Shown: positions 868 through 58,016 of the stretch, piece by piece
Layout: every line of letters starts with the position of its first letter
How positions within the stretch are numbered: the stretch's first letter is position 1
From: Terriglobia bacterium
GTDB taxonomy: Bacteria; Acidobacteriota; Terriglobia; 20CM-2-55-15
Direction of reading: 5' to 3'
Assembly: GCA_965218585.1 (NCBI GenBank)
Contig: CBDCLE010000012.1
Coordinates: 128,001-192,000 of the forward strand
DNA length: 64,000 nucleotides
Notes under the pieces: model-generated
Seen by the model: the letters and a program-made list of their open reading frames with translations, nothing else
Databases searched by the model: none
What the model was told of the DNA's origin: nothing
Program-made: the position numbers and the translations under genes

Positions 868-885
868 ACCGCGAAGACGCAAAGG
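868..885. repeat. Orphan left arm of the CRCRRAG palindromic element
   Basis: ACCGCGAAGACGCAAAGG resembles the left arms at 53591 and 54112. No right arm is seen before IS256 at 917. Confidence 0.5.
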
Positions 886-916
886 AAAACAGGATAGGCT
901 GTGTAAATTCCTACAG

Positions 917-2281
917 GAGGTCATTACAAAAGGTGTGTAAAAGTCATCAGGCGGCGGCCTTCGATTTCATCACGACTCTGATGCCGTCAGCGAATTGCTG
1001 ACCATCATAGACCTCTTGTAAGAGTTCGGATCCTTTTAAGTGTCGCCAAGCCTTCTCAGCGACACGTAGTAGCTTCCAGATCATTGCCGTTGCATTCTCG
1101 ACACGCTTGAATCGGCGAGCGGCGTTGGTGCGGAGGCGAACCATGTCGAAGGGCGACTCGACGATGTTGGTCGTTCTCAGATGCACCCAGTGTTGTTTCG
1201 GGAACTCATAGAAAGTAATCATCCGGTCCCAGTCCCGCAACAGCGTCTCACCCGCTTTGGGATAGTTCTTCTCATATCGGCGGACGAACTGATCCCGCTT
1301 TCGTTCGCAGGCCGCGCGGGAGTTCGCGAAGGCCATCCCATGAAGCAGCTGTCTGGCCGCGGGCTGCTCGGTCTTCGGCAGATGATCGACCACGTTGATC
1401 GACTTGTGGTTCCAGCAGCGTTGTTCCTGGCCCTGGGGCTGTTGCTCGGCCAGCGCGGACCAGATGCCCAGGTGACCGTCCGCGACAGTCAGCCGTCCCA
1501 GCTTCAGGCCCCGTCTCTGGAGATTGCGCAGAATGCGGCTCCAGGACTCCTTGCTTTCCCGCTGCCCGCTCTCACAGGCCAACAGCACTTTGCGCCCGTC
1601 TGACAAGGCTCCGATGATCACCAGCAATGCCGCTCGCTCTTTCGCGATCCCCGCTTTCACGTACAAGCCGTCTGCCCACTGGTACACGACCTCGAGGCCG
1701 GACAGGTCCTGCTGGACCCACTCGTCATACTCCAACTGCCAGGTCGATTTCAGTCGTTGGATCGATGCTCGCGACAACGGAGCGCCAGCGCCAAGCAGTC
1801 CGCGCATGGCCTGCTCGAAGTCCCCTGTGGCCAGACCGTGGAGGTAGAGATCGGGAAATAGCTCGCCCAGCTGTTTCGATTTCCGTCGAAAATACGGCAG
1901 GATCTGACTCTCGAACCGCTCGGCGGTGTTTCGAACCCGAGGTCGTCGAACCTCCATCGTACCGTTCATCATTGCGAAGCGTCGCGGCTTCCCGTGACCG
2001 TTCCGGTATCCTCGTCGATTCGGACTCCGCTCCGACTTTTCCCGACCCAGAAATTGAGTGACTTCGTCCTCGAGCAGCTCCTGTAGCCAGACTTGGACCC
2101 GGGATCGCGCCCAGTCCTCCAAACCTTCATACGCGTTCGTTGACGCCACTGATGCCGGTATGTTCTTCTTCTTCATGGGTGGTGTACCTTTCTCCCGATT
2201 GCTGCCGGGATTGCTTACGGTTTCGAATTCACCGAAAGCGTACACCGCCTTCTCTTTTTACACACCGATTGGAACGACCTC
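917..2281 (-). mobile_element. IS256-family insertion sequence, copy 1 (1365 bp, no target duplication)
   Basis: Imperfect 26-bp terminal inverted repeats GAGGTCATTACAAAAGGTGTGTAAAA / GAGGTCGTTCCAATCGGTGTGTAAAA. Near-identical to three other copies. Flanks TCCTACAG and GTCGCAGG do not match. Confidence 0.95.
947..2176 (-). CDS. IS256-family (mutator) transposase
   Basis: Motifs YRNG, WADG, VADGHLG, QRCWNH, LRTTNIVES. Likely start is the ATG (MKKKN) after a GGAGAAAGG ribosome-binding site. Confidence 0.95.
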   Translation of the reverse strand: MKKKNIPASVASTNAYEGLEDWARSRVQVWLQELLEDEVTQFLGREKSERSPNRRGYRNGHGKPRRFAMMNGTMEVRRPRVRNTAERFESQILPYFRRKSKQLGELFPDLYLHGLATGDFEQAMRGLLGAGAPLSRASIQRLKSTWQLEYDEWVQQDLSGLEVVYQWADGLYVKAGIAKERAALLVIIGALSDGRKVLLACESGQRESKESWSRILRNLQRRGLKLGRLTVADGHLGIWSALAEQQPQGQEQRCWNHKSINVVDHLPKTEQPAARQLLHGMAFANSRAACERKRDQFVRRYEKNYPKAGETLLRDWDRMITFYEFPKQHWVHLRTTNIVESPFDMVRLRTNAARRFKRVENATAMIWKLLRVAEKAWRHLKGSELLQEVYDGQQFADGIRVVMKSKAAA

Positions 2282-2422
2282 GTCGCAGGATTCGCGGGAA
2301 TCAGTCTGGTCTTCTACCCGTTTTAGATCCTATTAGATCCTAACTGTAGGTGCGGGCTAACTAGCATCGGGCCCACCGTCCTTTGGACGGTCCCCCCATG
2401 CCGGAACGCACAAATCAAACCT

Positions 2423-2477
2423 GTAGGTGCGCTCTGTGAGCGCACAAATGAGATGTGCGGTCGCAGACCGCACTTAC
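2423..2477. repeat. GTAG-type REP doublet (REPIN-like)
   Basis: GTAG-GTGCGCTC-TGT-GAGCGCAC, then an inverted partner GTGCGGTC-GCA-GACCGCAC-TTAC. Confidence 0.75.
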
Positions 2478-2490
2478 AGAAAAAAAGAAC

Positions 2491-3231: not shown

Positions 3232-3821
3232 GGACTGGGCCGAAGCACAGCGAGTCATCCTTGGCCTGACCCTGGGCCTCATGGTTCCAGCCTTGCTGGT
3301 CCGTTTTGCTCCAGGCCGATCCGACGATTTCGCCAAAGGTCTGCTTGCGGGCCTACTTGCGGGAGCAGGGTTTGGATACGCTCAGTTCTGCTTCATCAAC
3401 GAACGGCAGCGCCAAACGCTGGATCTCCTGTTAAGCCTTCCTGTGGAGCCACGAAAGCTGGTCCTCGCCAAATACGTCCCTTTACTCCATGGTCCTGTTC
3501 ACGGTGAACGTCCCTGGCCTATTCGTTCCGGACCCACGATTGATCTACGTCACTAATGCCGCTGCACTCTCATTGGCCACCCTCTTCATGGCCACGACGG
3601 TGATCTCAGACAAACCCTGGGCCTCACAGATCCCCATCTGGTTCCTCTTCGTCTTCATCCTCCCCATCCAGCGCATACTTGAACGCTACTACCCGGATGG
3701 CCTCGGCCTGCTGGAAACCCTTACGGCGAATCCCATCTTGATCGCCACGCTCCCCCTTCTCCTCTCACCTGTCCTGGTGATCATTTCCGTATGCTTTTTC
3801 AACACGAAGACACGAAGTTAA
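3185..3821 (+). pseudogene. ABC-2 permease, frameshifted near 3480
   Basis: Hydrophobic segments and NERQRQTLDLLLSLPV...LVLAKY motif. The protein continues in another frame (MVLFTVN...). Confidence 0.75.
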
Positions 3822-4201
3822 CGAAGGAAATCATCGGGTGTGCTATTGACGTCCTTCGCGAGTTAGGGCCCGGACTGTTAGAGTCGGTTTACGAAGAATG
3901 TCTGTCTATCGAATTGCAGAAAAAGGGGATTCGAGTCGCACGTCAGCTCCATCTTTCCGTTATCTATAAGGGACGGCCCGTCGCTTCAAGTCTTCGGCTG
4001 GACTTGATCGCAGGAGTCAAGGTGATCGTCGAGATCAAGTCTGTGGAGCACTTACTCGCGGTTCATCGTGCGCAGCTTCTCAGCTATCTACGCTTGGCAA
4101 ACTTTCCCAGTGGATTGCTCATCAACTTCAACGTTCCTCTCCTCAAGGACGGCATCAAACGCGTCCTCAACCTGAACACATTATCAAGTGATTCCGACTA
4201 G
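3791..4201 (+). CDS. GxxExxY protein (PD-(D/E)xK nuclease superfamily)
   Basis: LGPGLLESVYE (GxxExxY), RLDLI...VEIKSV (D...ExK), AQLLSYL and GLLINF motifs. 136 aa. Confidence 0.92.
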   Translation: MLFQHEDTKLTKEIIGCAIDVLRELGPGLLESVYEECLSIELQKKGIRVARQLHLSVIYKGRPVASSLRLDLIAGVKVIVEIKSVEHLLAVHRAQLLSYLRLANFPSGLLINFNVPLLKDGIKRVLNLNTLSSDSD

Positions 4202-4381
4202 ATCATCTTCCCTTCTTCGTGATCTTCGTGCCCTGGTGTGGGAGTTCTGAACGTACAGGCCGGTAGTAATGCACAGGTGAGGTCAAGACGTAGAGGGTAC
4301 TTGTGACACGAAGAAAACGAAGCACCACGAAGAATGAACGCCCTAAACACTTCGTGCCAAGGAATCCTTCACAAACACCCT

Positions 4382-4903
4382 CTACAGCAACTTCGAAAGG
4401 ATTTCTTCGGGTATACGTTCACGCAGTTCGGGGGAGGCTTCCAGCAGGCGGGAAATATCTGCCAAGTCTTTCTGTCGCTTACTGGCTCGCCGGGAGGAGT
4501 CCAACACGGCCCATACCTTTCCCTGTAGCACATCTTCGACGCGAGCGACGCGAAGAGTCATTCCAAGAACATCATGTTCAGCAGAATGGGGAAGGAAAGC
4601 GAAATAGCGCGGATCAGTCTGAATCTGAACCCGGATACTGGATTCGGAGGCGGACACGTTTATGCTGTGTTCAAATCGCTCTACGTGGAAACGTTCGGCG
4701 AGCTCACTTGTTAAAGAGTCTATGCTGTCGGCGGCAATGACAACATCAAGATCCAAGCTGACTACCGGCTCTACGTAAGCGTTTACCCCCTGGCCGCCAA
4801 TCACACAGTAACTCGCGCCGCTGGCTTCGAGCAAGGCCACGAAACGTTCTAGAAAATCCTCTCGATCCACAGTCACCGCCTTCCAGAACTCCAATTGTTT
4901 CAT
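4382..4903 (-). CDS. Nucleotidyltransferase-fold protein (AbiEii-like)
   Basis: YCVIGGQGVNAY...SLDLDVV motif and a C-terminal RxxKxxKDLADI motif. Start MKQLEF at 4903. Confidence 0.75.
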   Translation of the reverse strand: MKQLEFWKAVTVDREDFLERFVALLEASGASYCVIGGQGVNAYVEPVVSLDLDVVIAADSIDSLTSELAERFHVERFEHSINVSASESSIRVQIQTDPRYFAFLPHSAEHDVLGMTLRVARVEDVLQGKVWAVLDSSRRASKRQKDLADISRLLEASPELRERIPEEILSKLL

Positions 4904-4956
4904 GCGACTTCTCCGCCAACCTCTTATTAATTCATAGGCGAAAAGTATGACACACA

Positions 4957-6321
4957 GAGGTCGTTCCAATCGGTGTGTAAAAAGAGAAGGCGGTGTACGC
5001 TTTCGGTGAATCCGAAACCCTAAGCAATCCCGGCAGCAATCGGGAGAAAGGTACACCACCCATGAAGAAGAAGAACATACCGGCATCAGTGGCGTCAACG
5101 AACGCGTATGAAGGTTTGGAGGACTGGGCGCGATCCCGGGTCCAAGTCTGGCTACAGGAGCTGCTCGAGGACGAAGTCACTCAATTTCTGGGTCGGGAAA
5201 AGTCGGAGCGGAGTCCGAATCGACGAGGATACCGGAACGGTCACGGGAAGCCGCGACGCTTCGCAATGATGAACGGTACGATGGAGGTTCGACGACCTCG
5301 GGTTCGAAACACCGCCGAGCGGTTCGAGAGTCAGATCCTGCCGTATTTTCGACGGAAATCGAAACAGCTGGGCGAGCTACTTCCCGATCTCTACCTCCAC
5401 GGTCTGGCCACAGGGGACTTCGAGCAGGCCATGCGCGGACTGCTTGGCGCTGGCGCTCCGTTGTCGCGAGCATCGATCCAACGACTGAAATCGACCTGGC
5501 AGTTGGAGTATGACGAGTGGGTCCAGCAGGACCTGTCCGGCCTCGAGGTCGTGTACCAGTGGGCAGACGGCTTGTACGTGAAAGCGGGGATCGCGAAAGA
5601 GCGAGCGGCATTGCTGGTGATCATCGGAGCCTTGTCAGACGGGCGCAAAGTGGTGTTGGCCTGTGAGAGCGGGCAGCGGGAAAGCAAGGAGTCCTGGAGC
5701 CGCATTCTGCGCAATCTCCAGAGACGGGGCCTGAAGCTGGGACGGCTGACTGTCGCGGACGGTCACCTGGGCATCTGGTCCGCGCTGGCCGAGCAACAGC
5801 CCCAGGGCCAGGAACAACGCTGCTGGAACCACAAGTCGATCAACGTGGTCGATCATCTGCCGAAGACCGAGCAGCCCGCGGCCAGACAGCTGCTTCATGG
5901 GATGGCCTTCGCGAACTCCCGCGCGGCCTGCGAACGAAAGCGGGATCAGTTCGTCCGCCGATATGAGAAGAACTATCCCAAAGCGGGTGAGACGCTGTTG
6001 CGGGACTGGGACCGGATGATTACTTTCTATGAGTTCCCGAAACAACACTGGGTGCATCTGAGAACAACCAACATCGTCGAATCGCCCTTCGACATGGTTC
6101 GCCTCCGCACCAACGCCGCTCGCCGATTCAAGCGTGTCGAGAATGCAACGGCAATAATCTGGAAGCTACTACGTGTCGCTGAGAAGGCTTGGCGACACTT
6201 AAAAGGATCCGAACTCTTACAAGAGGTCTATGATGGTCAGCAATTCGCTGACGGCATCAGAGTCGTGATGAAATCGAAGGCCGCCGCCTGATGACTTTTA
6301 CACACCTTTTGTAATGACCTC
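4957..6321 (+). mobile_element. IS256-family insertion sequence, copy 2, 8-bp target duplication GACACACA
   Basis: Same terminal repeats as copy 1. GACACACA at 4949-4956 and 6322-6329. Confidence 0.97.
5062..6291 (+). CDS. IS256-family transposase
   Basis: Near-identical to copy 1. Confidence 0.95.
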   Translation: MKKKNIPASVASTNAYEGLEDWARSRVQVWLQELLEDEVTQFLGREKSERSPNRRGYRNGHGKPRRFAMMNGTMEVRRPRVRNTAERFESQILPYFRRKSKQLGELLPDLYLHGLATGDFEQAMRGLLGAGAPLSRASIQRLKSTWQLEYDEWVQQDLSGLEVVYQWADGLYVKAGIAKERAALLVIIGALSDGRKVVLACESGQRESKESWSRILRNLQRRGLKLGRLTVADGHLGIWSALAEQQPQGQEQRCWNHKSINVVDHLPKTEQPAARQLLHGMAFANSRAACERKRDQFVRRYEKNYPKAGETLLRDWDRMITFYEFPKQHWVHLRTTNIVESPFDMVRLRTNAARRFKRVENATAIIWKLLRVAEKAWRHLKGSELLQEVYDGQQFADGIRVVMKSKAAA

Positions 6322-6681
6322 GACACACAGCAGTAACTACCCTTAGCAACAAAAGTTCCATTCTTCCTTAGCACCTCGGTCTCTATGCTTCATGTCCATC
6401 TTGTTCGTGCCTTCGTGTTGAAGCTCTCAAAGTCTGGATCGTCGGGAATGAACACTCGAGCTCCGAAACACAGGGGATCTCTTGCGCGAAGTTCCCTGAT
6501 GAACGAAACTCCACGAAGATTGGGTACCTAAGAGGCTTCGTGTCTTCGTGTTGAAGTTCTCATTCTCCCGTTTGTCTCACCTTATCCATACAAACAAATC
6601 GCTGGATAAACGTACTTCTTCGAGCCTCATTCATAGGTTCAGTCACTTAACGATGGAACCAAGACTGCGTTCAACCCGACC

Positions 6682-8349: not shown

Positions 8350-8413
8350 GCAAGTATGGAACGCGTCGAAAGCGCCTCCCATGAGATCCGAAGACCGAGC
8401 GTATAATGACCCC

Positions 8414-9348: not shown

Positions 9349-9468
9349 AAGAATCCTGCAGTCGCACCTGGCCCCGCTCGCGTGACATTGATTTCACAGA
9401 ATGCGCTTTCCCATCGGCACCATACATGCGACTTTAGTAGTCATATTGAATAGACCGTTATAGCCATA

Positions 9469-10244: not shown

Positions 10245-10346
10245 AGAGAAGACTAATCAGAACAAGATTCCCCCGCCAGCCTGCGCATTCCGCTGAACGT
10301 GATCACTGGTTCCGGTATCCTACCTAACAACCTCGAAGTTCACGCC

Positions 10347-18560: not shown

Positions 18561-18626
18561 AACGCTGAGACGCGGAGGGCGCAGAGGCCGCTCGCCAGAA
18601 TAGATATAACTCTGCGTCTCTGCGTT
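18561..18626. repeat. CGCAGAG-unit palindromic element
   Basis: AACGCTGAGACGCGGAGGGCGCAGAG, 23-bp spacer, CTCTGCGTCTCTGCGTT. Confidence 0.85.
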
Positions 18627-41627: not shown

Positions 41628-41725
41628 GTCCTAACCATCCAATAACAAAAAGTGTCGATCCGCAAGATCTCGCGAACGAATCGAAAAAATTCCGATCATC
41701 ATGTATGCCCGGCTCGAAGCTGGTG

Positions 41726-43090: not shown

Positions 43091-43230
43091 CAGCTGCCTT
43101 TGAAAACAATTCGGCAGAAAATTTTCATCAACTCAAGAACGAATGCATGAAAGCCATATTCCATCGGTGGCCGATATGGCGACCTCGATGATAGACTAAG
43201 CTTGCCCTTGTCCCAGACAACTTAGGTCTC

Positions 43231-45635: not shown

Positions 45636-45643
45636 AGAAAGAG

Positions 45644-45753
45644 TTCAACCGAGAGACGCAGAGAACGCAGAGAAAGATCTGTTGGTTCAAGAGAAACCGT
45701 TTCTCAGAAAGTACATTTTACGACCTCTGCGTTCTCTGCGCCTCTGCGTTGAA
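45644..45753. repeat. CGCAGAG-unit palindromic element
   Basis: TTCAACCGAGAGACGCAGAGAACGCAGAGA, 51-bp spacer, CTCTGCGTTCTCTGCGCCTCTGCGTTGAA. Confidence 0.9.
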
Positions 45754-45773
45754 AGGTATCTCCTTTCCTGATG

Positions 45774-45802
45774 TTGACTCTGCTGGGGCCGTTGTGTAAC
45801 CT
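45774..45802 (+). promoter_or_regulatory. Putative sigma70 promoter of mltD
   Basis: TTGACT-N17-TAACCT. Confidence 0.45.
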
Positions 45803-45886
45803 AACTTATTGCAGGGCGGCAACTAAGCGAAGAAAGACGCGCTGCCGAGGGATCCTGCTCTTATAAATGAACCACTACATCTAGGG

Positions 45887-47740: not shown

Positions 47741-47898
47741 GCGTCTTCCTGTCCCGCGGTGTCTTTAAGAAGTAGCTTTCGAACAGGAATCGGACGGCTA
47801 CGGATATAAGATGTTTGCTTTCAATCACTTAAATATTTGACATCCGAGTGGCCCGATGCCGGGGACGGGACGTAGTAAATTATCAAGAATTCTTATTT

Positions 47899-47921
47899 AA
47901 CTTTTTACAGCTGGGGGCGTC
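47899..47921 (+). promoter_or_regulatory. Putative ECF-sigma autoregulatory promoter
   Basis: AAC-N16-CGTC ending 12 bp upstream of the ECF sigma start. Confidence 0.5.
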
Positions 47922-47933
47922 AAAACCCCTGAA

Positions 47934-48557
47934 ATGGACACGATTACGTTGAAACGGGCTCCCAAGACAGAAGCCGAAACCCAGGAAGAGCGGTTACTGG
48001 TCGAACAGGCTCAAGCGGGCGATCGGGAAGCCTTTGAACAATTGGTTTACCGCCATGATCGTGATATTTTGCGCCTTGCATTTCACATGCTTGGCAACCG
48101 CGAAGAGGCGCGGGAAGTCTTTCAGGACACATTTCTGAAAGCTTACCGCTCGCTCGGGCGATTTCGGTCCGAGTCCAGCTTCTACACGTGGATCTATCGG
48201 ATCGCAACGAACGTTGCTCTGGATCGTCTCCGCAAACGGCAGACGCTGCGCGAGGAGATATCCTACGAGGCCGACACCGAAGCACATCCGGATCGGCCGG
48301 CATTGAAAGATACGCTCGAGGAGAAGAGCTACTACAGCAATCCCGAACGGCGTCTCTACGGCCGGGAAGTCGGCGAACGGATCCAGGAAGCATTGGGAAC
48401 ATTATCAGAAAAGGAACGCCTGGTTTTTGAGTTGCGGCATTATCAGGGCTTGAGACTGCGGATGATCGGTGAAATCATGGGCAGCACCGAAGAGACCGCG
48501 AAAAATTATCTCTTCCGGGCCACTCAAAAGTTGAGAGCTCATCTGACCGAGATATAA
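47934..48557 (+). CDS. ECF RNA polymerase sigma factor
   Basis: GDREAFEQLV, QDTFLKAY, FYTWIYRIATN and a region 4 helix-turn-helix. Confidence 0.93.
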   Translation: MDTITLKRAPKTEAETQEERLLVEQAQAGDREAFEQLVYRHDRDILRLAFHMLGNREEAREVFQDTFLKAYRSLGRFRSESSFYTWIYRIATNVALDRLRKRQTLREEISYEADTEAHPDRPALKDTLEEKSYYSNPERRLYGREVGERIQEALGTLSEKERLVFELRHYQGLRLRMIGEIMGSTEETAKNYLFRATQKLRAHLTEI

Positions 48558-48579
48558 TGTTGCCCATCGAAAAAACACT

Positions 48580-49497
48580 ATGAACTGTCGAGAGCGCCAA
48601 CACGACATCGTCCTGTTTCTTTACGACGAATTAGGGATCGATAGTCGAAACGAACTGCGCACCCACATGGACACATGTGCCGAGTGCCTCCAATTCCACG
48701 AGAATGAAAAACAGGTCCACCTTCGCCTGACTGAGGATTTTTCCGAATGGGAAGTCCCAGCGGATCTGCTAATGGAATCCCGGCGAAGTCTGTCGGACGA
48801 GCTGGACCGGATCGAAGAGAAACGGTGGCGTTGGCGGATGCCGGCCCTCGTTCCCTCCTTCCTGAGGATCCGCTTGCTGGAATCTGCCACGCTCGTATCG
48901 ATTGGATTGGCCCTGGGCGTTTATATGATGAACGAAAGGCCACTCCCCGCCGAACAGAACCAAGTCGCCATGATCCCCACCGCAATTCCCGAAGGTGCTA
49001 CTGTTTCGAACCTGAGAATTACCGACGCCGATCCGGCAACCGGACGGGTGCAACTGGCCGGAGATGTCGTGCAGCCGATAGAACTCCAGGGGAATGTCGA
49101 AGATCCCAACGTGCGAGATCTGTTGTTCAGCGCCTTGCGTGCCGAGGGGAACCCCGGTGCCCGGCTTCGGGCGACCGAACTCCTGTCTACGAACCCGCGG
49201 GATCCCAGCGTGAAAGAAATTCTGATCGGCGTTCTCTTGAGTGATGACAACATTGGCGTGCGGCTCCAGGCATTGGAAGGGTTGCAGTCTTTCGCGGACC
49301 AGGATGACGTTCGCCAGGCTCTGATTTATTCTCTCGAAAACGATCAGAATCCGGGCATGCGAGTCAAAGCCATCGAAGCCCTGACTCCTTTGACGGCGGA
49401 TGAAGCGATGGAAGGGATCGTTCAGGAAGCTATTCGAGACGATCCGAACGCCTACGTCACGATGCGGGCGTTGCAGTTTGTAGGAACCGGAAATTGA
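48580..49497 (+). CDS. Zinc-finger anti-sigma factor with HEAT repeats
   Basis: HMDTCAEC (HxxxCxxC), a transmembrane helix, and repeated (D/G)xNPGxRLxA units. Confidence 0.85.
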   Translation: MNCRERQHDIVLFLYDELGIDSRNELRTHMDTCAECLQFHENEKQVHLRLTEDFSEWEVPADLLMESRRSLSDELDRIEEKRWRWRMPALVPSFLRIRLLESATLVSIGLALGVYMMNERPLPAEQNQVAMIPTAIPEGATVSNLRITDADPATGRVQLAGDVVQPIELQGNVEDPNVRDLLFSALRAEGNPGARLRATELLSTNPRDPSVKEILIGVLLSDDNIGVRLQALEGLQSFADQDDVRQALIYSLENDQNPGMRVKAIEALTPLTADEAMEGIVQEAIRDDPNAYVTMRALQFVGTGN

Positions 49498-50639
49498 TGA
49501 AGAAGGATTTGATGTCGATGTCCAAACGCGGTAGCTGGACTTTCGTCACGATCCTCGTTCTCCAATCCGTAGCTCTCGCCCAATGTCCCATTCCATCCAA
49601 CGGTGCCGTATTTGTAAGAATCCCTGTGGGAAATATCGTTGTGGACACGTCGGGTAGCGAAATCGTCTCAGCCCAGGTGTCGAATCCCGCCATAGAGGTC
49701 CAGGAAGCGTGTTTCGAAGATCACGTTGAGATCAGCGGTATTGCACCGGAGCGTGTATATGGTCCGGTCGATTGGGAAATTCAGGTCCCCAGTTCTGCGC
49801 GACTAGATCTGGTCACGCATGCAGGTTCGATTCGAATTGCCAACACAGACGGTAGCGTTACAGCCCGGACAACGGGCGGATCTGTAATCGTCGGAGATAT
49901 CGGCGGCGATGCGGCAATGGTCACCCAGGGCGGATCCATTCTTGTGGGAAACATCGACGGCAACGCGGAACTGCGGAGCCTGGGTGGAGAAATCAGGATG
50001 GGGAACGTGACTGGTAACGCCGAACTCCAGACGATGGGCGGTCCTATTACGACAGGAACCGTATCGGGACAGGTTCGAGCCGAAACGGCAGGCGGAACGA
50101 TCAGCATTCAGGAAAGCCAGGGGGAACTGGTCGCCCTCACTCTGGCGGGTGACATTCTGATTGGCACAGCCGGACGCACAACGGTTCAGACAGCCGGTGG
50201 CAATATCATCGGGCTGGTGATCCGCGGACCGTTCCAGGGTTCGACAGATATAGGAAATATCCGCCTCGAAAGAGCCGAGTCTTCGATCGAAGCAAGAACG
50301 GGAATCGGAAACATCGAGGCCCAGCTCATACCGTTGTCGCTGGACGGGGACCTCCATGTCACGCTCGATACGAACTCCGGTAACATCCGGCTTGTGATCC
50401 CGGATAACCTGCCGGCCGATGTAGAAGCCCGGGTGGATAGTCGCGTCGGCAACGGGCAGAACATCCGTTCCAACTTTCCGTTGGAACGAGTCAGCTCCAG
50501 ACCTAACCTCCCTCCGTTTTTCCCACAGGCATTTACGGTTGCACCAATCCGCTCCGAGACGACGTTGAACGGTGGCGGCAACCGCATTCAGATCCATGCC
50601 ACACGGGGATCCATCGAAATCCTCCGCGCCCCCCGCTAA
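49494..50639 (+). CDS. DUF4097 beta-strand repeat protein
   Basis: Signal peptide and repeated TxGGxI units. Confidence 0.8.
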   Translation: MMKKDLMSMSKRGSWTFVTILVLQSVALAQCPIPSNGAVFVRIPVGNIVVDTSGSEIVSAQVSNPAIEVQEACFEDHVEISGIAPERVYGPVDWEIQVPSSARLDLVTHAGSIRIANTDGSVTARTTGGSVIVGDIGGDAAMVTQGGSILVGNIDGNAELRSLGGEIRMGNVTGNAELQTMGGPITTGTVSGQVRAETAGGTISIQESQGELVALTLAGDILIGTAGRTTVQTAGGNIIGLVIRGPFQGSTDIGNIRLERAESSIEARTGIGNIEAQLIPLSLDGDLHVTLDTNSGNIRLVIPDNLPADVEARVDSRVGNGQNIRSNFPLERVSSRPNLPPFFPQAFTVAPIRSETTLNGGGNRIQIHATRGSIEILRAPR

Positions 50640-50662
50640 GTTCCCTCAGCAAAGCTAAGAAT

Positions 50663-50800
50663 TTCAACGCAGAGGCGCAGAGACGCAGTGGATCTTAGGC
50701 TCTGTAGATTCCGCGTGTCCTAACATTTAGGGGTTCCCAATGAAGAACGAATGCAGACAGCATATTCTTCTTTCTCTGCGCCTCTGCGCCTCTGCGTTAA
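50663..50800. repeat. CGCAGAG-unit palindromic element
   Basis: TTCAACGCAGAGGCGCAGAGACGCAG, 85-bp spacer, CTCTGCGCCTCTGCGCCTCTGCGTTAA. Confidence 0.9.
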
Positions 50801-50814
50801 TGTCCTGTCTTCTC

Positions 50815-53535
50815 TTAGTTCTGTCCGCGGAGGACAACGATCTTGGCTAAAGATGGGCTGAGGTAGCGGATGGCCACGGAGCGGACCTGGTCACGGGTCA
50901 CTTCGCGGATCGCCTCACTGAAATCGGTCACACCGGTCATGCCTTCACCGGCGATGATCTCACGCGCGAGGGCAAGAGTTCGGCCACGACGGGTCTGGAG
51001 TCTTGTCTCGTGGATCCCCACCGAGTAATTGATTGCACGTTCCAGTTCTTCATCGGTTATTCCCTCTTCGACCAGGCGGGTCATTTCTTCTTCTAAGGAA
51101 GCACGGACCTGCTGCTCGTTCTCAGGTGAAAAAGCGGTGTAGGCAAAGAACGCACCTGAGCGGCTGAGGAAATTATCAAGAACACGAACGGTATAGGCCA
51201 ACCCTTGTTCCTCGCGGATCGTTTCGAACAGCCGTCCACCCAGACCCGATAAAACGTTTTCGATCACGATCAGGGGAAGATGATCCCTGTGGGATAACTG
51301 AGGTCCGATCGTGCCGAATACCAAAGCGCTTTGCCGTCGGTCGGCTGTTTCGACGCGCTCCTCTCTCTCCAGTGAAGGTGTGGGTACCGGCAAACGCGAG
51401 ATATTGCGCTCGAACAGATCCTCGTTGGTCAGCGTCTCGGCAATAGAGGCCACCAGGCCAGTTCCGTTGGTGTCACCAACGATGACGATCAACGGGACAA
51501 CTGTCCGTTGATGCAGGCGATGCCATGCGCCGAGATCGTCAGGCGTGATCTCTCCCAGGGACGACTCGGTCCCAACCGCGGGACGCGCGTAGGAATGGCC
51601 GTCGAACGCGGTCTCCATAAACAGCTGAACAGGGTACCGCAGAGTGTCTTCCCGGAGTCGGGAAATACGTGCCTCCTGCAGCACACGTTCCTGCCGAACC
51701 CGATCTTCTGGAAACGTAGGATCCTGCAACACCTCCATCAGAATCTCCAGCGCCTCATCGATCTGGCCACTCACTCCATCGAGGAGGTAACCGAAGAAAT
51801 CGGGCTCGTTGACTACCTCGATCCGGGCGCCGGCATTCTCGAGCCGACGTGAAATGTCTGCAGTGTTGTATCTGCGTGTACCACGGAGCGCACTCCGAAG
51901 CATCAGCTCCGTAATTCCAGCATTGCTGTCCGATTCGAAAAGGCGCCCCCCCGGAAAGAAGATCCCAAACGAAACCAGAGGCAATCGATGATCCTCAAGA
52001 ACGTAAACTTCGGGCCCCCTGAGAATCTGACGGCGCAGGGGTGGACGGACAAGGTCGAGCACGACTTCATCGTTGGACGAAGGAACCGTCGCGGAAACGG
52101 GAAGCTCCTCGACGCTTCTCTGAACGATGTCAACAGGAACCCTGTCGAGGACGTTCGCGCTGAAATCGTCATTTGAAAAAGACCGCGCTACAGAAGTCGG
52201 AAGGTACTCAAACACGCTCAGGTTGGTCCGCGTCAGGTACCGCCGTGCGACCCTCTGAACGTCGTCCGCGCTGACAGCTCCGATGCCGTCCAGATACCGA
52301 TCCATCCGTCTCCAGTCGCCGAGCACTTCCTGTCGGGCCATTTCGTCGGCAAGAGATTCGACGGTCTCCAGCCTGTGGTAGTACTGCTGGGCGATCAAGG
52401 TCTTGGCCCGCATCAACTCCTCTTCGAGAACTCCAAATCGCTGGATCCGATCGAACTCCTCGAGCGCGGCGACCTGGGCATCCAGGGGCGTGGATGTTTC
52501 CAACGTCAACTGGAAGTAGCCGAGCCCTTCGAAGCCGACAAAGCCGGACCCCGCACTATGGATCACTCCGAGTTCGTCACGCAGAAACTGGTTCATTCGG
52601 GACGCGCGTCCCGCGGTCAGGATGCCTGAAAGAACGTCCAACACGTACGCGTCGTCAGAGAGTCGGTCCGGAACGTGGAATCCCAGCGCAACCTGAGAAC
52701 GCTCTATCGGTCCACGTTCCCAGTTGTATCGGAATGCAGATTGTGAAGGTTCCTCCGGCCCACGATCACGCTCTACGGGCATGTCGGGCGCGGATCCATA
52801 AAACCGGACAATCTCCTCGAGAATGTCCTCACGATCGAACTGCCCGACGACTGCAAGGACGATGTTGGACGGCTGATAGTAGCTCTGGTAGAAACCGAGG
52901 AGGTCGTCCCGGGTCAGGGCACGGAGTCCTTCCGGAGAACCGATCCTCCAGCGGCGCATACGGTGTTCTTCAAATGCTGTCGCGTACAACCGCTCCACAG
53001 CTACGGCTGGAGGGTTGTCCAGCTTCCGGTTGTTCTCCTGGAGGATGACTTCGATCTCCCGTCGAAGTGCTCCTGAATTGAAAATGGGATTAAAGAGCGC
53101 GTCGGACTGGATGTCCATTGCCTGCACTGAGTTTTCAGCCGGAACAACCGCGTGATACACCGTGCGTTCGTAGTTGGTGTAAGCATTCAGCGATCCGCCC
53201 AGTGCCTTCGTCTCTGCTGCGATCTGCCCGACACCGCGCCTTTCGGTGCCTTTAAAAAACATGTGTTCGACAACATGGGCGATCCCCGAAAGACCGTCGG
53301 GTTCGTCAAAGTAGCCTACCCTGACGTGAGTCGTAATCGTTGTCAGAGGAATGGCGTTGTTCTCTCGAACGAGAACGGTCAGCCCGTTCTTGAGTATGAC
53401 TTTGGTCGACTGTCCGGAATCTTCTCTCAGAATAAATGGCCCCACAATTTCTCCCCCCACGTTCACATCAGCATCCGGGTCGGGTAATTGAGGAATAGGG
53501 ATGATCTGAAGGAAAAGAAGGAAAAACAGCGACAT
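50815..53535 (-). CDS. M16-family zinc peptidase (fused, four-domain)
   Basis: GIAHVVEHMFFKG (HxxEH), NAYT and RLFETIREEQGLAY motifs. Confidence 0.92.
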   Translation of the reverse strand: MSLFFLLFLQIIPIPQLPDPDADVNVGGEIVGPFILREDSGQSTKVILKNGLTVLVRENNAIPLTTITTHVRVGYFDEPDGLSGIAHVVEHMFFKGTERRGVGQIAAETKALGGSLNAYTNYERTVYHAVVPAENSVQAMDIQSDALFNPIFNSGALRREIEVILQENNRKLDNPPAVAVERLYATAFEEHRMRRWRIGSPEGLRALTRDDLLGFYQSYYQPSNIVLAVVGQFDREDILEEIVRFYGSAPDMPVERDRGPEEPSQSAFRYNWERGPIERSQVALGFHVPDRLSDDAYVLDVLSGILTAGRASRMNQFLRDELGVIHSAGSGFVGFEGLGYFQLTLETSTPLDAQVAALEEFDRIQRFGVLEEELMRAKTLIAQQYYHRLETVESLADEMARQEVLGDWRRMDRYLDGIGAVSADDVQRVARRYLTRTNLSVFEYLPTSVARSFSNDDFSANVLDRVPVDIVQRSVEELPVSATVPSSNDEVVLDLVRPPLRRQILRGPEVYVLEDHRLPLVSFGIFFPGGRLFESDSNAGITELMLRSALRGTRRYNTADISRRLENAGARIEVVNEPDFFGYLLDGVSGQIDEALEILMEVLQDPTFPEDRVRQERVLQEARISRLREDTLRYPVQLFMETAFDGHSYARPAVGTESSLGEITPDDLGAWHRLHQRTVVPLIVIVGDTNGTGLVASIAETLTNEDLFERNISRLPVPTPSLEREERVETADRRQSALVFGTIGPQLSHRDHLPLIVIENVLSGLGGRLFETIREEQGLAYTVRVLDNFLSRSGAFFAYTAFSPENEQQVRASLEEEMTRLVEEGITDEELERAINYSVGIHETRLQTRRGRTLALAREIIAGEGMTGVTDFSEAIREVTRDQVRSVAIRYLSPSLAKIVVLRGQN

Positions 53536-53590
53536 GCCAATATTTTACCTTACAGCTTCACGAATGGGAGCGTAACCGGAAACCAAAGGA

Positions 53591-53675
53591 TCAACCGCAA
53601 AGGCGCTAAGGCGCAAAGCTTTATATAGGCCGCACTTGCTATCTTCCCTTCGCGTCTTCGCGTCTTTGCGGTTCA
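53591..53675. repeat. CGCAAAG-unit palindromic element overlapping the tsaE 3' end
   Basis: TCAACCGCAAAGGCGCTAAGGCGCAAAG, 29-bp spacer, CTTCGCGTCTTCGCGTCTTTGCGGTTCA. Confidence 0.88.
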
Positions 53676-54103
53676 TCTTCTGCCGATCTGACCTCAATCT
53701 GACGGGTGTGTTCGTCGACATAGGTAAGTGAAATGTGTGTGGCTTGAGGTGGGGTGAAATCACCCAGGCGGTCGGCCCATTCGACCACGGCCACGGCTGC
53801 AGCGTCCTCCAGAATCTCGTCCAATCCAAGGTCGTACAGGTCCCGGGAGGCGACGCGATAGAGATCGATGTGATAGATGGGAACCCTCCCATGATAACGA
53901 TTGACCAGGGTAAAGGTCGGGCTTGAGACCTCATCGACGTCGTCCAAACCAAACCCAGCTGCCAATCCCTTCGTGAAGGTCGTCTTCCCTGCACCGAGTT
54001 CGCCAAACAACAGAACGTGTGAGGGCACGTCAAGAGATTCGGCCAACTTCCGTGCAAACTCGAACGTCTGGCCTTCCGACTGTGAGAGGAAATTTGATCC
54101 CAT
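53639..54103 (-). CDS. tsaE: tRNA threonylcarbamoyladenosine biosynthesis ATPase
   Basis: GELGAGKTT, VSSPTF, HIDLYR and VEWA motifs. Confidence 0.95.
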   Translation of the reverse strand: MGSNFLSQSEGQTFEFARKLAESLDVPSHVLLFGELGAGKTTFTKGLAAGFGLDDVDEVSSPTFTLVNRYHGRVPIYHIDLYRVASRDLYDLGLDEILEDAAAVAVVEWADRLGDFTPPQATHISLTYVDEHTRQIEVRSAEDEPQRREDAKGR

Positions 54104-54111
54104 AAAATTTA

Positions 54112-54258
54112 TTGACCGCAAAGGCTCGAAGTCGCAAAGGAAGAAAAACGAAAGTAGGTAAAATACGTCTAGGTCGACCAGACTTGGCCGGGCTAGAAAA
54201 ACAAACAGCAGCCTGGGTTTTCTTCTTAGTCTTTGCGCCTTTGCGCCTTCGCGGTAAA
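54112..54258. repeat. CGCAAAG-unit palindromic element
   Basis: TTGACCGCAAAGGCTCGAAGTCGCAAAGG, 90-bp spacer, CTTTGCGCCTTTGCGCCTTCGCGGTAAA. Confidence 0.88.
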
Positions 54259-54263
54259 AACTC

Positions 54264-55829
54264 TTACTCCCCGCGGAGTTCGGCCCATGCCTCGGACAGG
54301 AATTCGATCAGGTCGGTCGCGACAAGAGTCTCCTCGCCGAGTTCCGACACAGCGACGTCTCCAGCCAACCCGTGGAGATAAACCGCCAGGCACAAACGCT
54401 CTTCAAACGTACCCAGATGAGGCTGCCCCAAGATACCTGCGATCATGCCGGTCAGGACATCACCGCTGCCTGCCGTCGCCATGCCTGGGTTTCCCGTTGA
54501 ATTTACGTAAACCCTTCCATCCGGACAGGCGATCACGGTCCGGAAGCCTTTCAAGACGACGTAAACGTTCTGCTGTTTTGCAAACTCGCCGGCAACTGAC
54601 AAACGGTTTCTCGACACGTCAGCAGTCGAGCGATCCAGGAGTCGGGCCATCTCACCTGGATGAGGCGTGATGACGATCGGATTATCTACTCCGTGCAATT
54701 TGTCGACACGACCCACGAAGGCGTTCAATCCGTCTGCGTCCAGAACCAGCGGCACCTCGACCCGGCTGACGACTTCACCGATCAACTCGTCCGTCTCCGG
54801 ATGGCGTCCGATGCCCGGACCCAGGGCAACCAGAGACTTATCTTCGATCAGTTCTTCGATTCGGCCGTCGTTCAGTGCCGAAAGCGTTCCTGTGTCCGTT
54901 TCGGGAAGCGGTTCAGTCATGATCTCGGGCATGTACCCGGCAACGATCCCCAACACACTTTCGGGCACACCCACTGTGACCAGACCCGCACCGGCTACCA
55001 GTGCAGCATGTCCGGCCATCGCAGCCGCGCCGGTCTTTCCACGTGAGCCCCCGATGATCAGGATCTTCCCGTAGTCGCCCTTGTGCGAGTCTTCTTCACG
55101 ACTCCAGAGCGCCTCGGGAAAACTGTCGTCCAGCAGCAGTTCAACCTTGTGTGCGTCGGATTCCAGCAGTTCATGGGGATTGCCGATATCGGCGATGACA
55201 ACTTCACCTGCCGCCTGATTGGCGGGCGGGAAAACAAGACAGAACTTGGCTGCGGATAGAGTGACCGTGAGATCAGCCTGCACGACCGGTCCTTCCAGGT
55301 CCCCGGCGTCGGCCCCGCAGCCTGAAGGCACATCGATCGACACGACCATCGCCTGTGGGAAATCTTCGTCCAACGACTGAACTACCTCTCCCAGAAAACC
55401 CTCGACCGGTTTGGAAAGCCCCGTTCCGAGCAGCCCGTCCACAACGATCTCCACGTCGCCAAGCGCAAGCCTTTCGCGATCCCAATCCTCGCGATTTCTG
55501 ATGACGACGGGTGGATGTCCGATGGACGTCAGAATATCCAGGTTCACCCGCGCGTCGCCGCCGACAGCATCGGTTTCTGCAAATAAGAACACCGAGGGAA
55601 AGCAATCCCGCCCGATCAACTGCCGGGCGACTACGAAGCCGTCTCCGCCGTTATTTCCCTTCCCGCAGAGTATGACAACCGAACTGGTATCGAGGTCTTC
55701 GACACGCGCACCCATCGCCTCGACCACACGCATCCCGGCGTTTTCCATGAGCGTGATGCTCGGAATGTTAAAGGCCTTACTGGACGTACGGTCAACCTGG
55801 CGGATTTCTTCTGCGGTGAGGATCTTCAT
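54264..55829 (-). CDS. nnr: Bifunctional NAD(P)HX epimerase/dehydratase
   Basis: LMENAG, GKGNNGGDG, HKGDYG, LDADGL, TPHPGE and GSGDVL motifs. Confidence 0.95.
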   Translation of the reverse strand: MKILTAEEIRQVDRTSSKAFNIPSITLMENAGMRVVEAMGARVEDLDTSSVVILCGKGNNGGDGFVVARQLIGRDCFPSVFLFAETDAVGGDARVNLDILTSIGHPPVVIRNREDWDRERLALGDVEIVVDGLLGTGLSKPVEGFLGEVVQSLDEDFPQAMVVSIDVPSGCGADAGDLEGPVVQADLTVTLSAAKFCLVFPPANQAAGEVVIADIGNPHELLESDAHKVELLLDDSFPEALWSREEDSHKGDYGKILIIGGSRGKTGAAAMAGHAALVAGAGLVTVGVPESVLGIVAGYMPEIMTEPLPETDTGTLSALNDGRIEELIEDKSLVALGPGIGRHPETDELIGEVVSRVEVPLVLDADGLNAFVGRVDKLHGVDNPIVITPHPGEMARLLDRSTADVSRNRLSVAGEFAKQQNVYVVLKGFRTVIACPDGRVYVNSTGNPGMATAGSGDVLTGMIAGILGQPHLGTFEERLCLAVYLHGLAGDVAVSELGEETLVATDLIEFLSEAWAELRGE

Positions 55830-55846
55830 GGGAAGGAGGGAAAGGG

Positions 55847-55931
55847 AAATGGGGTCAGAGTCCTATTTCCTTATTTAACAGATGAAATACCTGTAACGCA
55901 AAATTGGGGAAATAGGGCTCTGACCCCATTT
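55847..55931. repeat. 24-bp inverted repeat element (GGGGTCAGA type)
   Basis: AAATGGGGTCAGAGTCCTATTTCC, 37-bp spacer, GGAAATAGGGCTCTGACCCCATTT (23/24 match). Confidence 0.85.
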
Positions 55932-55933
55932 AA

Positions 55934-56488
55934 TCAGTCGCCGCTAACGACCTCGGCCATCTCACCCAGTAACGCCTCGACGGGTATCAATCCGCCGGTT
56001 ACGTTCTTCCAGATCAGCGTGCCTTCCTCGTCGATGAGGAAGTAGTAACGGCTGGCCACGGGAATGTCTCCCCCGGTCGACGCGCCATAACGATCGACGA
56101 CTTCGAGGCCGGGATCACTCAGGAAATAATTCCGGGCGCTTACGGTCTCTGCGAATCGCTGCTGTGCCGGCTGGAGATCTCTGGAAATGCCAACGATCTC
56201 GATACCTAAACTCAGGAACTCGTCGTAATTAACACCGAACTCGGTGAATTCTCGCGTTCAGCCGCCAGTAAATGCGGCCGGGAAAAACGCGATCAAAACC
56301 TTGCTCTGACCTCGGAAATTCGCGAGTCCCAGCGTTTCGTCTCCACGCAGTCCCACCGGGCGTTCGAAGTCTGGTGCAGGCTCTCCCACCTCGGGCGTGT
56401 TATCCCCTCCAGGCGCCTGCAACTGTCCAAAAGCCAACGCACCGGAGAACACCATCAAGACGGGTAGAAGTAAGGCAACCTTCATCAT
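55934..56488 (-). CDS. Selenocysteine-containing peroxiredoxin-like (AhpC/TSA) protein, exported
   Basis: FFPAAFTGG-UGA-TREF places UGA at the peroxidatic Cys position. The frame stays open for 107 more codons with GISRD, LSD and FLIDEEG motifs. A hairpin follows the UGA. Confidence 0.85.
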
Positions 56489-56699
56489 CAGTCGTCCTCC
56501 TCTATGATCGTAGTGCCGCGTCTTCTCCGGTCTCCCGGTCGAATCCGTGCACGTAACTCACATCAGATACCGAACCATCATATGCTAAGATTTGCGCTTT
56601 ACGCAACAAGACTGAATCTGACCTAAAGTATAGTTTTTTTCAAGCGTTAACCAAGCTGTCGGCGAATATCGACCTTCGCACCGCTCCACCGAACGCGAA

Positions 56700-57914
56700 A
56701 TGCCTCTTTCACACGTCAAGGCGCTGGAAGAACAGAGCCTGCTTCAGACCTACAACCGGTACGATCTGCTGGTAGACCGGGGCAGCGGCCCTTACCTGTT
56801 TGACAAGAGCAACAGACGTTATCTCGACCTTCTGGCAGGGATCGGCGTCAATGCCCTGGGATACAACCATCCTCGAATGCTCCGCGTCCTCCGAAAACAG
56901 ATCAAGCAGCCCCTGCACATTTCAAACCTGCTGTACCACGAACATCAGGGCCGCCTCGCCCAGCGACTGACCGAACTCTCCGGCCTCGATCGGGTCTTCT
57001 TTTCCAATAGTGGAACCGAGGCGGTGGAGGGTTGCCTGAAACTGGCCCGTGCTTATGCGAACTCCAGGGAAGGAGCCGGTCCGGGCAACCGCGTACTTGC
57101 CCTCGAGGGCTCCTTTCACGGACGGTCTCTGGGAGCACTATCGGCCACACACTCGAGTCGATACCGGACTCCTTTCGAACCCCTGCTCACTGGCTTCGAG
57201 TTCGTCCGGTTCGACGACATCGAAGATCTGGACCACCGTTTCTCAGATGACGTATGCGCTGTAATCCTGGAAGCAATTCAGGGAGAAGGCGGCATCCGTC
57301 CGATATCGGAAGAGTTCTATCGTCGGGCGCGAGCACTCACAGAAGACGCCAAAGCCGTCCTCATCTGTGACGAAGTCCAATGCGGCCTGGGACGTTCAGG
57401 GCGCTGGCTCGCACATCACAAGTTTGCCCCGCCCGACAGACCCGATTCCCTGCCCGATCTGGTCGCACTCGCGAAACCGCTGGGCGGTGGGCTTCCGCTC
57501 GGCGCAGTCTTGATGAAAGAAGAACTCGCCAGAGCAATCGAACCGGGTCTCCACGGATCGACCTTCGGAGGGGGACCTTTAGCATGCAAGCTGAGCCTGG
57601 AAATGCTGAAGATTTTTGAGGAAGAAAATCTTCTCGGGCATGTCCAGGAAGTCGGTGCCTACTTCCTCGAGCAACTTAAAGAACTCGAAAGCCTGCCGGT
57701 GGTCGAGGAAGTTCGGGGCGAAGGCCTTATGTTGGCCGTCGCACTGAAAATACAGGCCAAAGAGCTCGTGAAGCAGTTGCTCGACGCCGGCTTCATAACA
57801 AACGCGACGAGCGGGAACGTCCTCCGCCTTCTGCCTCCCCTGATTATCCGGAAGAAACAGATCGACAAGTTCATCAAAGCCCTCCGCCCCCTTCTGGAAA
57901 CATTGGATGCCTGA
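56700..57914 (+). CDS. argD: Acetylornithine aminotransferase
   Basis: AGIGVNALG, NSGTEAVE, SFHGRS, IQGEGG, DEVQCG, AKPLGGG and HGSTFGG motifs. Confidence 0.9.
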   Translation: MPLSHVKALEEQSLLQTYNRYDLLVDRGSGPYLFDKSNRRYLDLLAGIGVNALGYNHPRMLRVLRKQIKQPLHISNLLYHEHQGRLAQRLTELSGLDRVFFSNSGTEAVEGCLKLARAYANSREGAGPGNRVLALEGSFHGRSLGALSATHSSRYRTPFEPLLTGFEFVRFDDIEDLDHRFSDDVCAVILEAIQGEGGIRPISEEFYRRARALTEDAKAVLICDEVQCGLGRSGRWLAHHKFAPPDRPDSLPDLVALAKPLGGGLPLGAVLMKEELARAIEPGLHGSTFGGGPLACKLSLEMLKIFEEENLLGHVQEVGAYFLEQLKELESLPVVEEVRGEGLMLAVALKIQAKELVKQLLDAGFITNATSGNVLRLLPPLIIRKKQIDKFIKALRPLLETLDA

Positions 57915-57932
57915 ATAAGAACCAGGAACTTT

Positions 57933-58016
57933 TTCAACGCAGAGACGCAGAGGACGCAGAGAATTGTTTCCGAAAGATAGCCAAAAAACTTCTGCCTCTC
58001 AGCGTCTCTGCTTTGA
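57933..58016. repeat. CGCAGAG-unit palindromic element
   Basis: TTCAACGCAGAGACGCAGAGGACGCAGAGA, 28-bp spacer, degenerate TCTGCCTCTCAGCGTCTCTGCTTTGA. Confidence 0.82.

Follow-up and report, generated by a model that had tools for sequence, protein, structure and literature searches.

A GxxExxY nuclease gene and at least six gene-less hairpins in an acidobacterial genome belong to a widespread family of hairpin-boxed cassettes

Introduction

Among described systems, the closest to the element analysed here are the intervening sequences (IVSs) of 23S ribosomal RNA (rRNA) that carry an open reading frame (ORF), as in Coxiella and Leptospira. In the account published for Coxiella, an ORF of the S23p family (PF05635) lies inside a 28-bp terminal stem that is cut by RNase III, the element has been acquired horizontally, its ORF is decaying, and the origin of rRNA IVSs is still called unclear (PMC4990558). 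Here we analyse a stretch of 64,000 nucleotides, hereafter the window, from a Terriglobia bacterium (GCA_965218585.1; positions 128001-192000 of contig 12 in a genome of 4.55 Mb in 26 contigs); all coordinates below are window positions. Hairpin cassettes of one widespread family are represented in the window by a gene-bearing member, built around a GxxExxY (PDDEXK_3) nuclease gene, and by six or more members without a gene. The family is apparently undescribed, since no published description of such cassettes was found in searches by family name, by unit string and through the IVS and inverted-repeat literature, supplements aside, and PMC4666352 returned 0 matches to the arm unit strings. Both GxxExxY/PDDEXK_3 and the '23S rRNA intervening sequence protein' are very common small families that still lack a function.

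Further comparisons come from several classes of repeats and selfish genes. In the REPtron, which joins repetitive extragenic palindromic (REP) sequences and their hairpin-forming doublets (REPINs) with a REP-associated tyrosine transposase (RAYT), a small gene lies between inverted repeats, many gene-less palindromes are scattered between genes, and their abundance is linked to the gene; REP palindromes carry a conserved GTAG head. Some homing endonucleases have the PD-(D/E)xK fold. Bacterial miniature inverted-repeat transposable elements (MITEs) that form RNA hairpins, such as the Correia elements of Neisseria, are short, have terminal inverted repeats and are co-transcribed with their neighbours; the copies of a MITE have internal sequence in common, and their source is a DDE transposon. 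The foldback transposons of eukaryotes have long inverted arms made of short tandem subrepeats, and most of their copies are non-coding. Finally, arrays of a GGGNATC heptamer in Xanthomonas and Nostoc have been read, in the abstract that presents them, as formers of G-quadruplexes (Rehm 2015, PMC4692102).

Results

A nuclease gene between inverted arms

The GxxExxY gene (3791-4201, + strand) is the sole copy in the genome and encodes a protein of 136 amino acids, P0001, which matches PF13366 (E 2.9e-41, 140.9 bits against a cut-off of 22) and TIGR04256 (E 1.2e-42, 145 bits against a cut-off of 35). Its AlphaFold model, built from a 70-row alignment, reached a mean predicted local distance difference test score (pLDDT) of 90.9 and has the fold of a PD-(D/E)xK nuclease, and in the 70-sequence alignment residues E31, D71, E81 and K83, the last two forming an E81-x-K83 motif, are invariant or at least 90% conserved. 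The best structural matches of the model are all PD-(D/E)xK nucleases and no specific relative stands out: Foldseek placed Cas4 SSO0001 first (E 2.6e-3), and the VIA matches were CinB (Z 8.0), R.SwaI (7.7) and Hjc (6.5). With matches this generic and Z at most 8.0, kinship with Holliday-junction resolvases is not claimed. A sequence search of solved structures with P0001 gave nothing significant (best E 0.096).

The gene sits behind an ABC-2 permease gene, not inside a 23S rRNA helix, and is accompanied by two inverted arms. The left arm (3796-3826, +) consists of TTCAAC followed by CACGAAG-type units, and the right arm (4215-4230, +) of two CTTCGTG units. The initial annotation had these arms bracket the gene exactly, which needs correction: the left arm is contained in the 12 opening codons of the gene, overlapping codons 2-12, and the right arm begins 14 nt past the stop codon. 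ORF 3489-3821, upstream of the gene, also ends within the left arm, its stop codon being 3819-3821. By itself the arm pair is weak: it scored 25, and the best of 20 shuffles scored 26. It is convincing only through the same arrangement in homologues.

A cassette family across phyla, inserted behind co-directional genes

To see that arrangement we turned to homologue loci, 80 from public genomes of many phyla and 30 from relatives, minus those short of flanking sequence. Inverted arms that beat all 20 shuffles flank 79 of the 107 GxxExxY loci, in many phyla, and the arms inspected are tandem CRCNRAG-type units. When scored by motif, as at least two spaced CRCNRAG units, both arms were present at 59 of 105 loci, one arm at 24 and neither at 22, compared with 5 in the wrong-strand control. 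The proposal that GxxExxY genes are flanked by such arms across genomes is therefore borne out, and the cassettes form a family that spans phyla.

The major unit is shared by both arms in 49 of the 59 loci with two-arm arrays. Along a 53-protein tree we counted 27 changes of unit type (shuffled mean 35.6, minimum 30) and 8 changes of unit position 2 (shuffled mean 16.3, minimum 11). Across phyla C1, C3, A6 and G7 of the unit are constant, while positions 2, 4 and 5 change often; a fixed core with labile positions is the look expected of a putative protein-binding site.

Cassettes are inserted behind co-directional genes. As judged from crude ORF calls, the upstream neighbour is co-directional with the cassette at 80 of the 97 loci with a called upstream neighbour, and the downstream neighbour at 70 of 96; the distance from the upstream stop codon to GxxExxY residue 1 has a median of 61 nt. 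An open frame even runs continuously from the permease into GxxExxY over 337 amino acids in the congener G001, and over 324 in G004:C2 and G007. Since the upstream genes are co-directional and the distances short, the cassette looks promoter-less and appears to be carried by host transcription. The contig G004:C2 (locus L092) and the G007 chromosome, G007:C1 (L093), agree exactly in the arms and match scores of their GxxExxY cassettes, as they do for a PF05635 fragment about 10 kb away; G004:C2 may have been mis-binned or may result from a recent transfer.

Gene-less hairpins in the window and in the genome

Six intergenic elements with a shared architecture had been reported from the window, and all of them are present. 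Three have CGCAGAG-type arms and lie at 18561-18626 (spacer 32 nt), 45644-45753 (52 nt) and 50666-50798 (87 nt); two are of the CGCAAAG type, at 53589-53677 (29 nt) and 54112-54258 (91 nt); and the sixth, at 57934-58016, is again of the CGCAGAG type (30 nt). In each an arm of tandem units is followed by a spacer and by the reverse complement of the arm. The arms are 17-30 nt long and comprise 2-3 units of 8-9 nt with the core C-R-C-N-R-A-G; the arrays are mostly preceded by (T)TCAAC or TTGACC, with the complement of that lead on the far side. The spacers measure 29-91 nt, instead of the 23-90 bp initially given. As RNA every element folds into one long hairpin, with z-scores of -3.6 to -6.0 against 200 dinucleotide shuffles, of which 0 or 1 per element folded as well.

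Arrays of two or more units occur 68 times in forward and 72 times in reverse orientation across the genome, compared with 9-15 in five mononucleotide-shuffled versions of the genome; together with the fold z-scores, these counts reject an origin of the arrays by chance or low complexity. Arm-spacer-arm pairing yielded 61 elements in the whole genome. The two arms of a locus do change together, as had been claimed: the same major unit occurs in both arms of 41 of 59 elements, whereas 2000 permutations averaged 23.9 and never exceeded 33. Among the spacers of at least 40 nt (n=29), 27 match only themselves genome-wide and the remaining two match one another, implying that no master element was copied to give the solo elements, which do not form a copy family. 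A lax tblastn search of the solo spacers for remnants of the GxxExxY gene found none beyond arm-encoded stretches.

Repeat number follows the gene at the genome level

We then compared 151 genomes of the phylum, each at least 90% complete, of which 58 hold a GxxExxY gene and 93 do not. At least five three-unit arrays occurred in 52 of the 58 gene-holding genomes and in 14 of the 93 gene-less ones, with medians of 29 and 1 arrays per genome, in a sample whose members are related and hence not independent, so that p-values overstate the gene-array link. Without G085, G062 and G182, three genomes flagged as unpublished, the counts were 51 of 57 versus 14 of 91. Six gene-holding genomes have no arrays. 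Among 41 relatives, sorted into repeat-rich and repeat-poor classes by our own reading of the tables, the gene was found in 12 of 14 repeat-rich and in 11 of 27 repeat-poor genomes. The prediction that repeat number would track gene presence thus held in the phylum sample.

Turnover at orthologous sites in congeners

In congeners, whose genes are about 75-77% identical in DNA to those of the window, four of the solo sites could be followed. At 50666 an orthologous element is found in G003, and the site is empty in G004 and G002. The CGCAAAG element at 53589 corresponds to a CGCAGAG element in G003 and to arms around an insert of about 430 nt in G004, with none in G002. At 54112 the CGCAAAG type of this genome corresponds to CGCAGAG in G003 and to a CACGAAG element in G004, again with none in G002. 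The CGCAGAG element at 57934 has a degenerate counterpart in G003 and none in G004, and G002 is not clear, with possible degenerate arms. Presence, absence and type switching therefore all occur at orthologous sites, a single site can change its unit type in both arms, and the coexistence of empty and filled sites foreseen in the initial annotation is found among congeners. The G004 insert at the 53589-equivalent site (L119:963-1475) is rich in other short repeats (GCGAAGAAGCGCCG...), and at the same place G002 has a partly related 779-nt stretch without recognisable arms (L120:4263-5041).

The element at 50666 and its G003 counterpart match at 25 of 30 and 24 of 28 arm positions (83-86% identical); their spacers match at 33 of 80 (41%) with 30 gap columns in addition, and the left flank at 10 of 33. 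An element shared with G003 at the same site implies that some solo elements are old, and the alignment suggests that arms are kept by selection or concerted evolution while spacers drift.

The gene-bearing site turns over as well. In G001, which has two copies, a GxxExxY cassette lies behind the same ABC-2 permease gene (77% nucleotide identity) and before the same downstream gene, with arms of CGCAAAG instead of CACGAAG and a protein only 48% identical to P0001. P0001 is closer to homologues from other phyla, at 55-57% identity, than to this G001 allele. The positional orthologue in G004:C18 is a pseudogene, in which residues 1-64 of a G001-type gene are left, with two stops, a frameshift and degenerate arms; its DNA is 74% identical to the G001 cassette over 229 nt. 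One site behind the permease thus carries P0001, a distant allele or a pseudogene, the pattern by which homing genes are recognised.

Loss of the cargo within the arms

A route to the gene-less form is seen in G170, which has 27 PF13366 matches. Fourteen of the 16 loci fetched are near-identical (97-100%) copies of a larger repeat with one CGCGGAG-armed cassette. The distance between the intact arms is 475 nt with a full gene at two loci; internal deletions have reduced it to 417 nt at two loci, 400 nt at one, 275 nt at six and 257 nt at two, and one arm is missing at one locus. This deletion series and the G004 pseudogene together trace a route from a gene-bearing cassette to a gene-less hairpin with a unique spacer, by decay of the cargo within the arms. 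The carrier repeat on G170:C1, found at sixteen places (L163-L178), is more than 1.1 kb long, has the cassette about 120 nt from one end and is the source of most of the genome's 27 gene matches.

A second cargo in arms of other units

PF05635, the family of the rRNA IVS protein, is present in 27 of 40 relatives; in the genome of the window no match was found. Flanking inverted arms that beat all shuffles occur at 20 of 29 PF05635 loci, and in 14 of those 20, as judged by eye, the arm consists of tandem 6-8-nt units of other sequence, including CAGTGGN, TAGGCAT, AGTTTTC and GATGAAT. None of the 20 is of the CRCNRAG type. The arm architecture is accordingly generic and the unit class specific to the cargo.

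A proposed selfish cassette and its remnants

These results suggest a promoter-less, IVS-like selfish cassette of which the gene-less hairpins are remnants. In full form it would consist of a PD-(D/E)xK nuclease gene of about 125 codons, lacking a promoter, inside inverted arms of 8-9-nt CRCNRAG units. Insertion directly behind a co-directional host gene would let the cassette be transcribed with that gene; its cargo would later be deleted or decay while the arms persist, leaving gene-less hairpins at the 3' ends of genes. Fixed sites would turn over, so that a related species may have at the same site a distant allele whose arms are of another type, a pseudogene or no cassette at all.

The second part of the proposal concerns the protein, which may recognise the invariant unit positions (C1, C3, A6, G7) or the hairpin or cruciform of the arms. 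It would cut arm-bearing sites, and repair through the arms as portable homology would copy or replace the cassette in a homing-like manner; in the transcript, the paired arms could also allow excision of the cassette, as in an rRNA IVS. That the protein acts on its own arms is suggested because the unit core is conserved across phyla, unlike what a mere pairing constraint would produce, and because the active site is conserved. We hold the proposal as a whole, cassette and nuclease action together, to be evenly balanced between right and wrong, and nuclease-driven homing specifically to be doubtful.

Several observations weigh against the selfish cassette with an arm-directed nuclease. The arm type of the resident gene is a minority among the solo elements, with 9 of the 59 paired elements built of CACGAAG and 36 of CGCAGAG units, and the unique spacers give no sign of recent copying. 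Repeats also abound where the gene is absent: at least ten arrays occur in 11 of the 93 gene-less genomes of the phylum sample, and the relatives G003 and G023, which lack the gene, have 201 and 556 two-unit matches. The analogous arms of PF05635 loci, whose protein is a four-helix bundle and not a nuclease, imply that the architecture needs no nuclease. In favour of the proposal, elements cluster round the gene, with 18 of 61 on its own contig (2.9 expected) and, in two other genera, 86 two-unit matches in the 400 kb around the gene in G017 (38 expected) and 55 in G021 (10.9 expected), in counts that include overlapping matches and have overstated Poisson p-values; such clusters may be inherited and not the product of local spread. 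The orientation of neighbours comes from crude gene calls, and target-site duplications and exact junctions are unreadable in congener intergenic flanks, which are too diverged.

The same points divide the model put forward in the initial annotation, that of an enzyme gene with non-autonomous copies, comparable to REP/RAYT systems. The link of gene and arms, the tracking of arrays with the gene and the empty and filled sites speak for it. The unique spacers, the minority arm type, the age of some elements, the repeat-rich genomes without the gene and the arms around non-nuclease PF05635 genes speak against it.

Placement between genes and a possible role in RNA

Part of the evidence can be read at the level of RNA only. 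The arm stem in a read-through transcript would be cut by RNase III, releasing or regulating the mRNA of the cassette, the host would keep gene-less hairpins as 3'-end structures by which transcripts are stabilised or delimited, and the job of the nuclease would be unrelated. The ORF-bearing IVSs, as described for Coxiella, provide the precedent, having the same architecture and a terminal stem cut by RNase III (PMC4990558), and the PF05635 genes with analogous arms that lie outside rRNA fit as well. The minimum-energy fold of the cassette RNA pairs its two arms, and the co-directional upstream genes described above would place that stem in a transcript. Placement agrees: 55 of the 61 elements are intergenic, by crude ORF calls, and they shun regions between divergent genes (2 of 55; 22% expected, p 2.5e-4) and favour those between convergent genes (22 of 55; 20% expected).

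In contrast, no strand bias emerged from the 31 elements between co-directional genes. G:U-compatible mismatches numbered 27 for the sense and 36 for the antisense strand (p 0.31), and the sense RNA folded better in 13 elements and worse in 15, which is weak evidence against a sense-strand RNA stem being under selection. On either strand the hairpins have T-runs in front and A-runs or GTTGAA(A) behind; they have no U-tract, which counts against the RNA-only explanation and rejects a reading as intrinsic (Rho-independent) terminators. Moreover pairing alone leaves the cross-phylum unit core C-C--AG unexplained. We therefore consider a purely RNA-level role unlikely, if worth keeping in view.

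Genes as possible passengers of arm-bounded slots

A different explanation makes the genes passengers. The arms would be made or moved by host recombination, by replication slippage at hairpins or by an unlinked enzyme, and the slots that they bound would be hot spots at which small, fast-evolving genes, possibly with roles in defence or addiction, are swapped. Two unrelated cargo families with one architecture are what such slots would give, as are alleles merely 48% identical at one site, a unit type that changes 27 times on the 53-tip protein tree, genomes rich in repeats but lacking the gene, and an AbiEii-like ORF and insertion sequences that adjoin the cassette. Set against this, each cargo family has its own class of unit, with 0 of 20 PF05635 arms being CRCNRAG, and arrays closely track the presence of the GxxExxY gene. 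PADLOC gave no defence-system match for P0001 beyond a weak Cas4 row (E 0.006). A candidate enzyme was not found either, as no arrays lie in the two 3.3-kb Y1_Tnp loci of the genome, from which the nearest catalogued element is at least 19 kb away. On balance the passenger explanation seems improbable. Both it and the RNA-level role are compatible with the first part of our proposal, the cassette and its remnants, and are not exclusive of it.

It is very improbable that an HUH tyrosine transposase mobilises the hairpins as REP or REPIN elements: the hairpins are dispersed intergenic palindromes and the genome has two Y1_Tnp-domain genes, but the arms have no GTAG head and are built as tandem arrays, the spacers are unique, a separate GTAG-type repeat (CTGTAGGTGCG...) is more likely the REP family, and the array-free Y1_Tnp loci reject a RAYT as the driver.

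The GTAG-type repeat, which combines a short hairpin with a GTAG head, occurs in the window at 2340-2470 (CTGTAGGTGCG...CGCAC) and has copies in G001-G004; a 9-mer from it has 146 matches in the genome, with none within 1.5 kb of the RAYT-like Y1_Tnp genes at C10:115768 and C3:160482.

Other features of the window

Several partial elements accompany the complete ones. A left-type arm of CGCGAAG/CGCAAAG units at 868-886 is an orphan for which no partner was found, 30 nt from an IS256-family insertion. A degenerate element at 4303-4360 has three CACGAAG-type units, a 17-nt spacer and one complementary unit. A remnant right arm (CTTGTTCGTGCCTTCGTGTTGAAG) lies at 6398-6425, and at 6510-6556 there is a short element or distal right arm whose last units have their orthologue in a second, degenerate right arm that follows the G001 cassette.

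The IS256-family insertion sequence is 1365 bp long, encodes a transposase of 432 amino acids (NF033543, E 8.8e-82) and occurs in the window at 917-2281 (-), 4957-6321 (+), 10347-11711 (-) and 41725-43090 (-). About 60 full-length copies in the genome, 98-99.7% identical, together with fragments, mark a recent burst, and two copies lie 30-80 nt from hairpin arms (868-886 and 6398-6425). ORF 4382-4903 (-), which has a weak match to an AbiEii nucleotidyltransferase toxin (Pfam E 4.6e-5; PADLOC E 1.5e-5), lies in the stretch from the cassette to an IS256 copy, within a segment that the G001 and G004 versions of the locus lack. A dispersed palindromic repeat of about 85 bp at 55848-55932 (GGGGTCAGAGTCCTATTTCC ... 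GGAAATAGGGCTCTGACCCC) has dozens of matches on both strands in G001-G003, at 73-86% identity.

Hairpin repeats break short-read assemblies. Contigs of three short-read metagenome runs stop within hairpin arms (window 45725-45752, 54270 and 57931-57959), and read depth heaps up at the arms, the reads coming from arms of other elements. Over 43200-59800, the hairpin at 45644 is bridged by identical metagenome contigs, and the apparent joints are arms of other elements with other spacers, which carry no information on polymorphism.

Discussion

A single frame would join the GxxExxY and PF05635 families with intergenic hairpins that reach hundreds per genome. Host genes take stop codons and C-terminal residues from these hairpins, which go unannotated. 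If the nuclease acts on its arms, the cassettes would represent a type of mobile element driven by a minimal restriction-like enzyme, and rRNA intervening sequences would gain a concrete and testable origin.

A bolder version would make GxxExxY a new kind of homing nuclease, which recognises CRCNRAG units or their cruciform and cuts cargo-less or foreign hairpins, with the arms guiding the copying-in of the cassette. We think this unlikely. Were it true, hairpin cassettes would be a mobile-element class of their own, with PF05635 cassettes and rRNA IVSs as a sister branch; the landing pads and fossils of the class would be the intergenic hairpins, which number dozens to hundreds in a genome.

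Compared with known systems, the cassette resembles homing endonuclease genes in its presence, absence and allele replacement at a fixed site and in a patchy distribution by horizontal transfer. It differs in that the gene lies outside any intron or intein and that its putative target is a dispersed repeat. With REP/RAYT systems it shares a gene between inverted repeats, many gene-less palindromes and an abundance linked to the presence of the gene. In contrast to those systems the enclosed protein belongs to PF13366 and is not an HUH Y1 transposase, the arms consist of TTCAAC or TTCACC followed by CRCNRAG units without a GTAG head, near-identical copies are absent (27 of 29 spacers are unique) and the resident arm type is a minority.

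The hairpin elements are short and have terminal inverted repeats, as MITEs do, but have only their arms in common. The likeness to foldback transposons is one of form only, since these are eukaryotic, much larger and use a different transposase. GGGNATC arrays, which like the hairpin arms consist of tandem units (of 7 nt), concentrate near stop codons, are seldom found between divergent genes and are transcribed; their unit is another one, and the abstract that describes them mentions neither a gene link nor inverted arms (PMC4692102).

By analogy, the closest described counterpart of the window cassette is the ORF-bearing 23S rRNA IVS. Both enclose a small ORF in a terminal inverted-repeat stem. 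In the Coxiella account the IVS rides a host transcript, spreads by horizontal transfer and has an ORF prone to decay, as the GxxExxY cassette appears to; PF05635 genes outside rRNA in relatives also have tandem-unit arms. The GxxExxY cassette differs in its host, which is a protein-coding operon or intergenic region and not rRNA, and in its cargo, a PD-(D/E)xK nuclease (PF13366) and not S23p (PF05635). Its arms are tandem arrays of one conserved 8-9-nt unit, and gene-less copies of its type number dozens to hundreds per genome.

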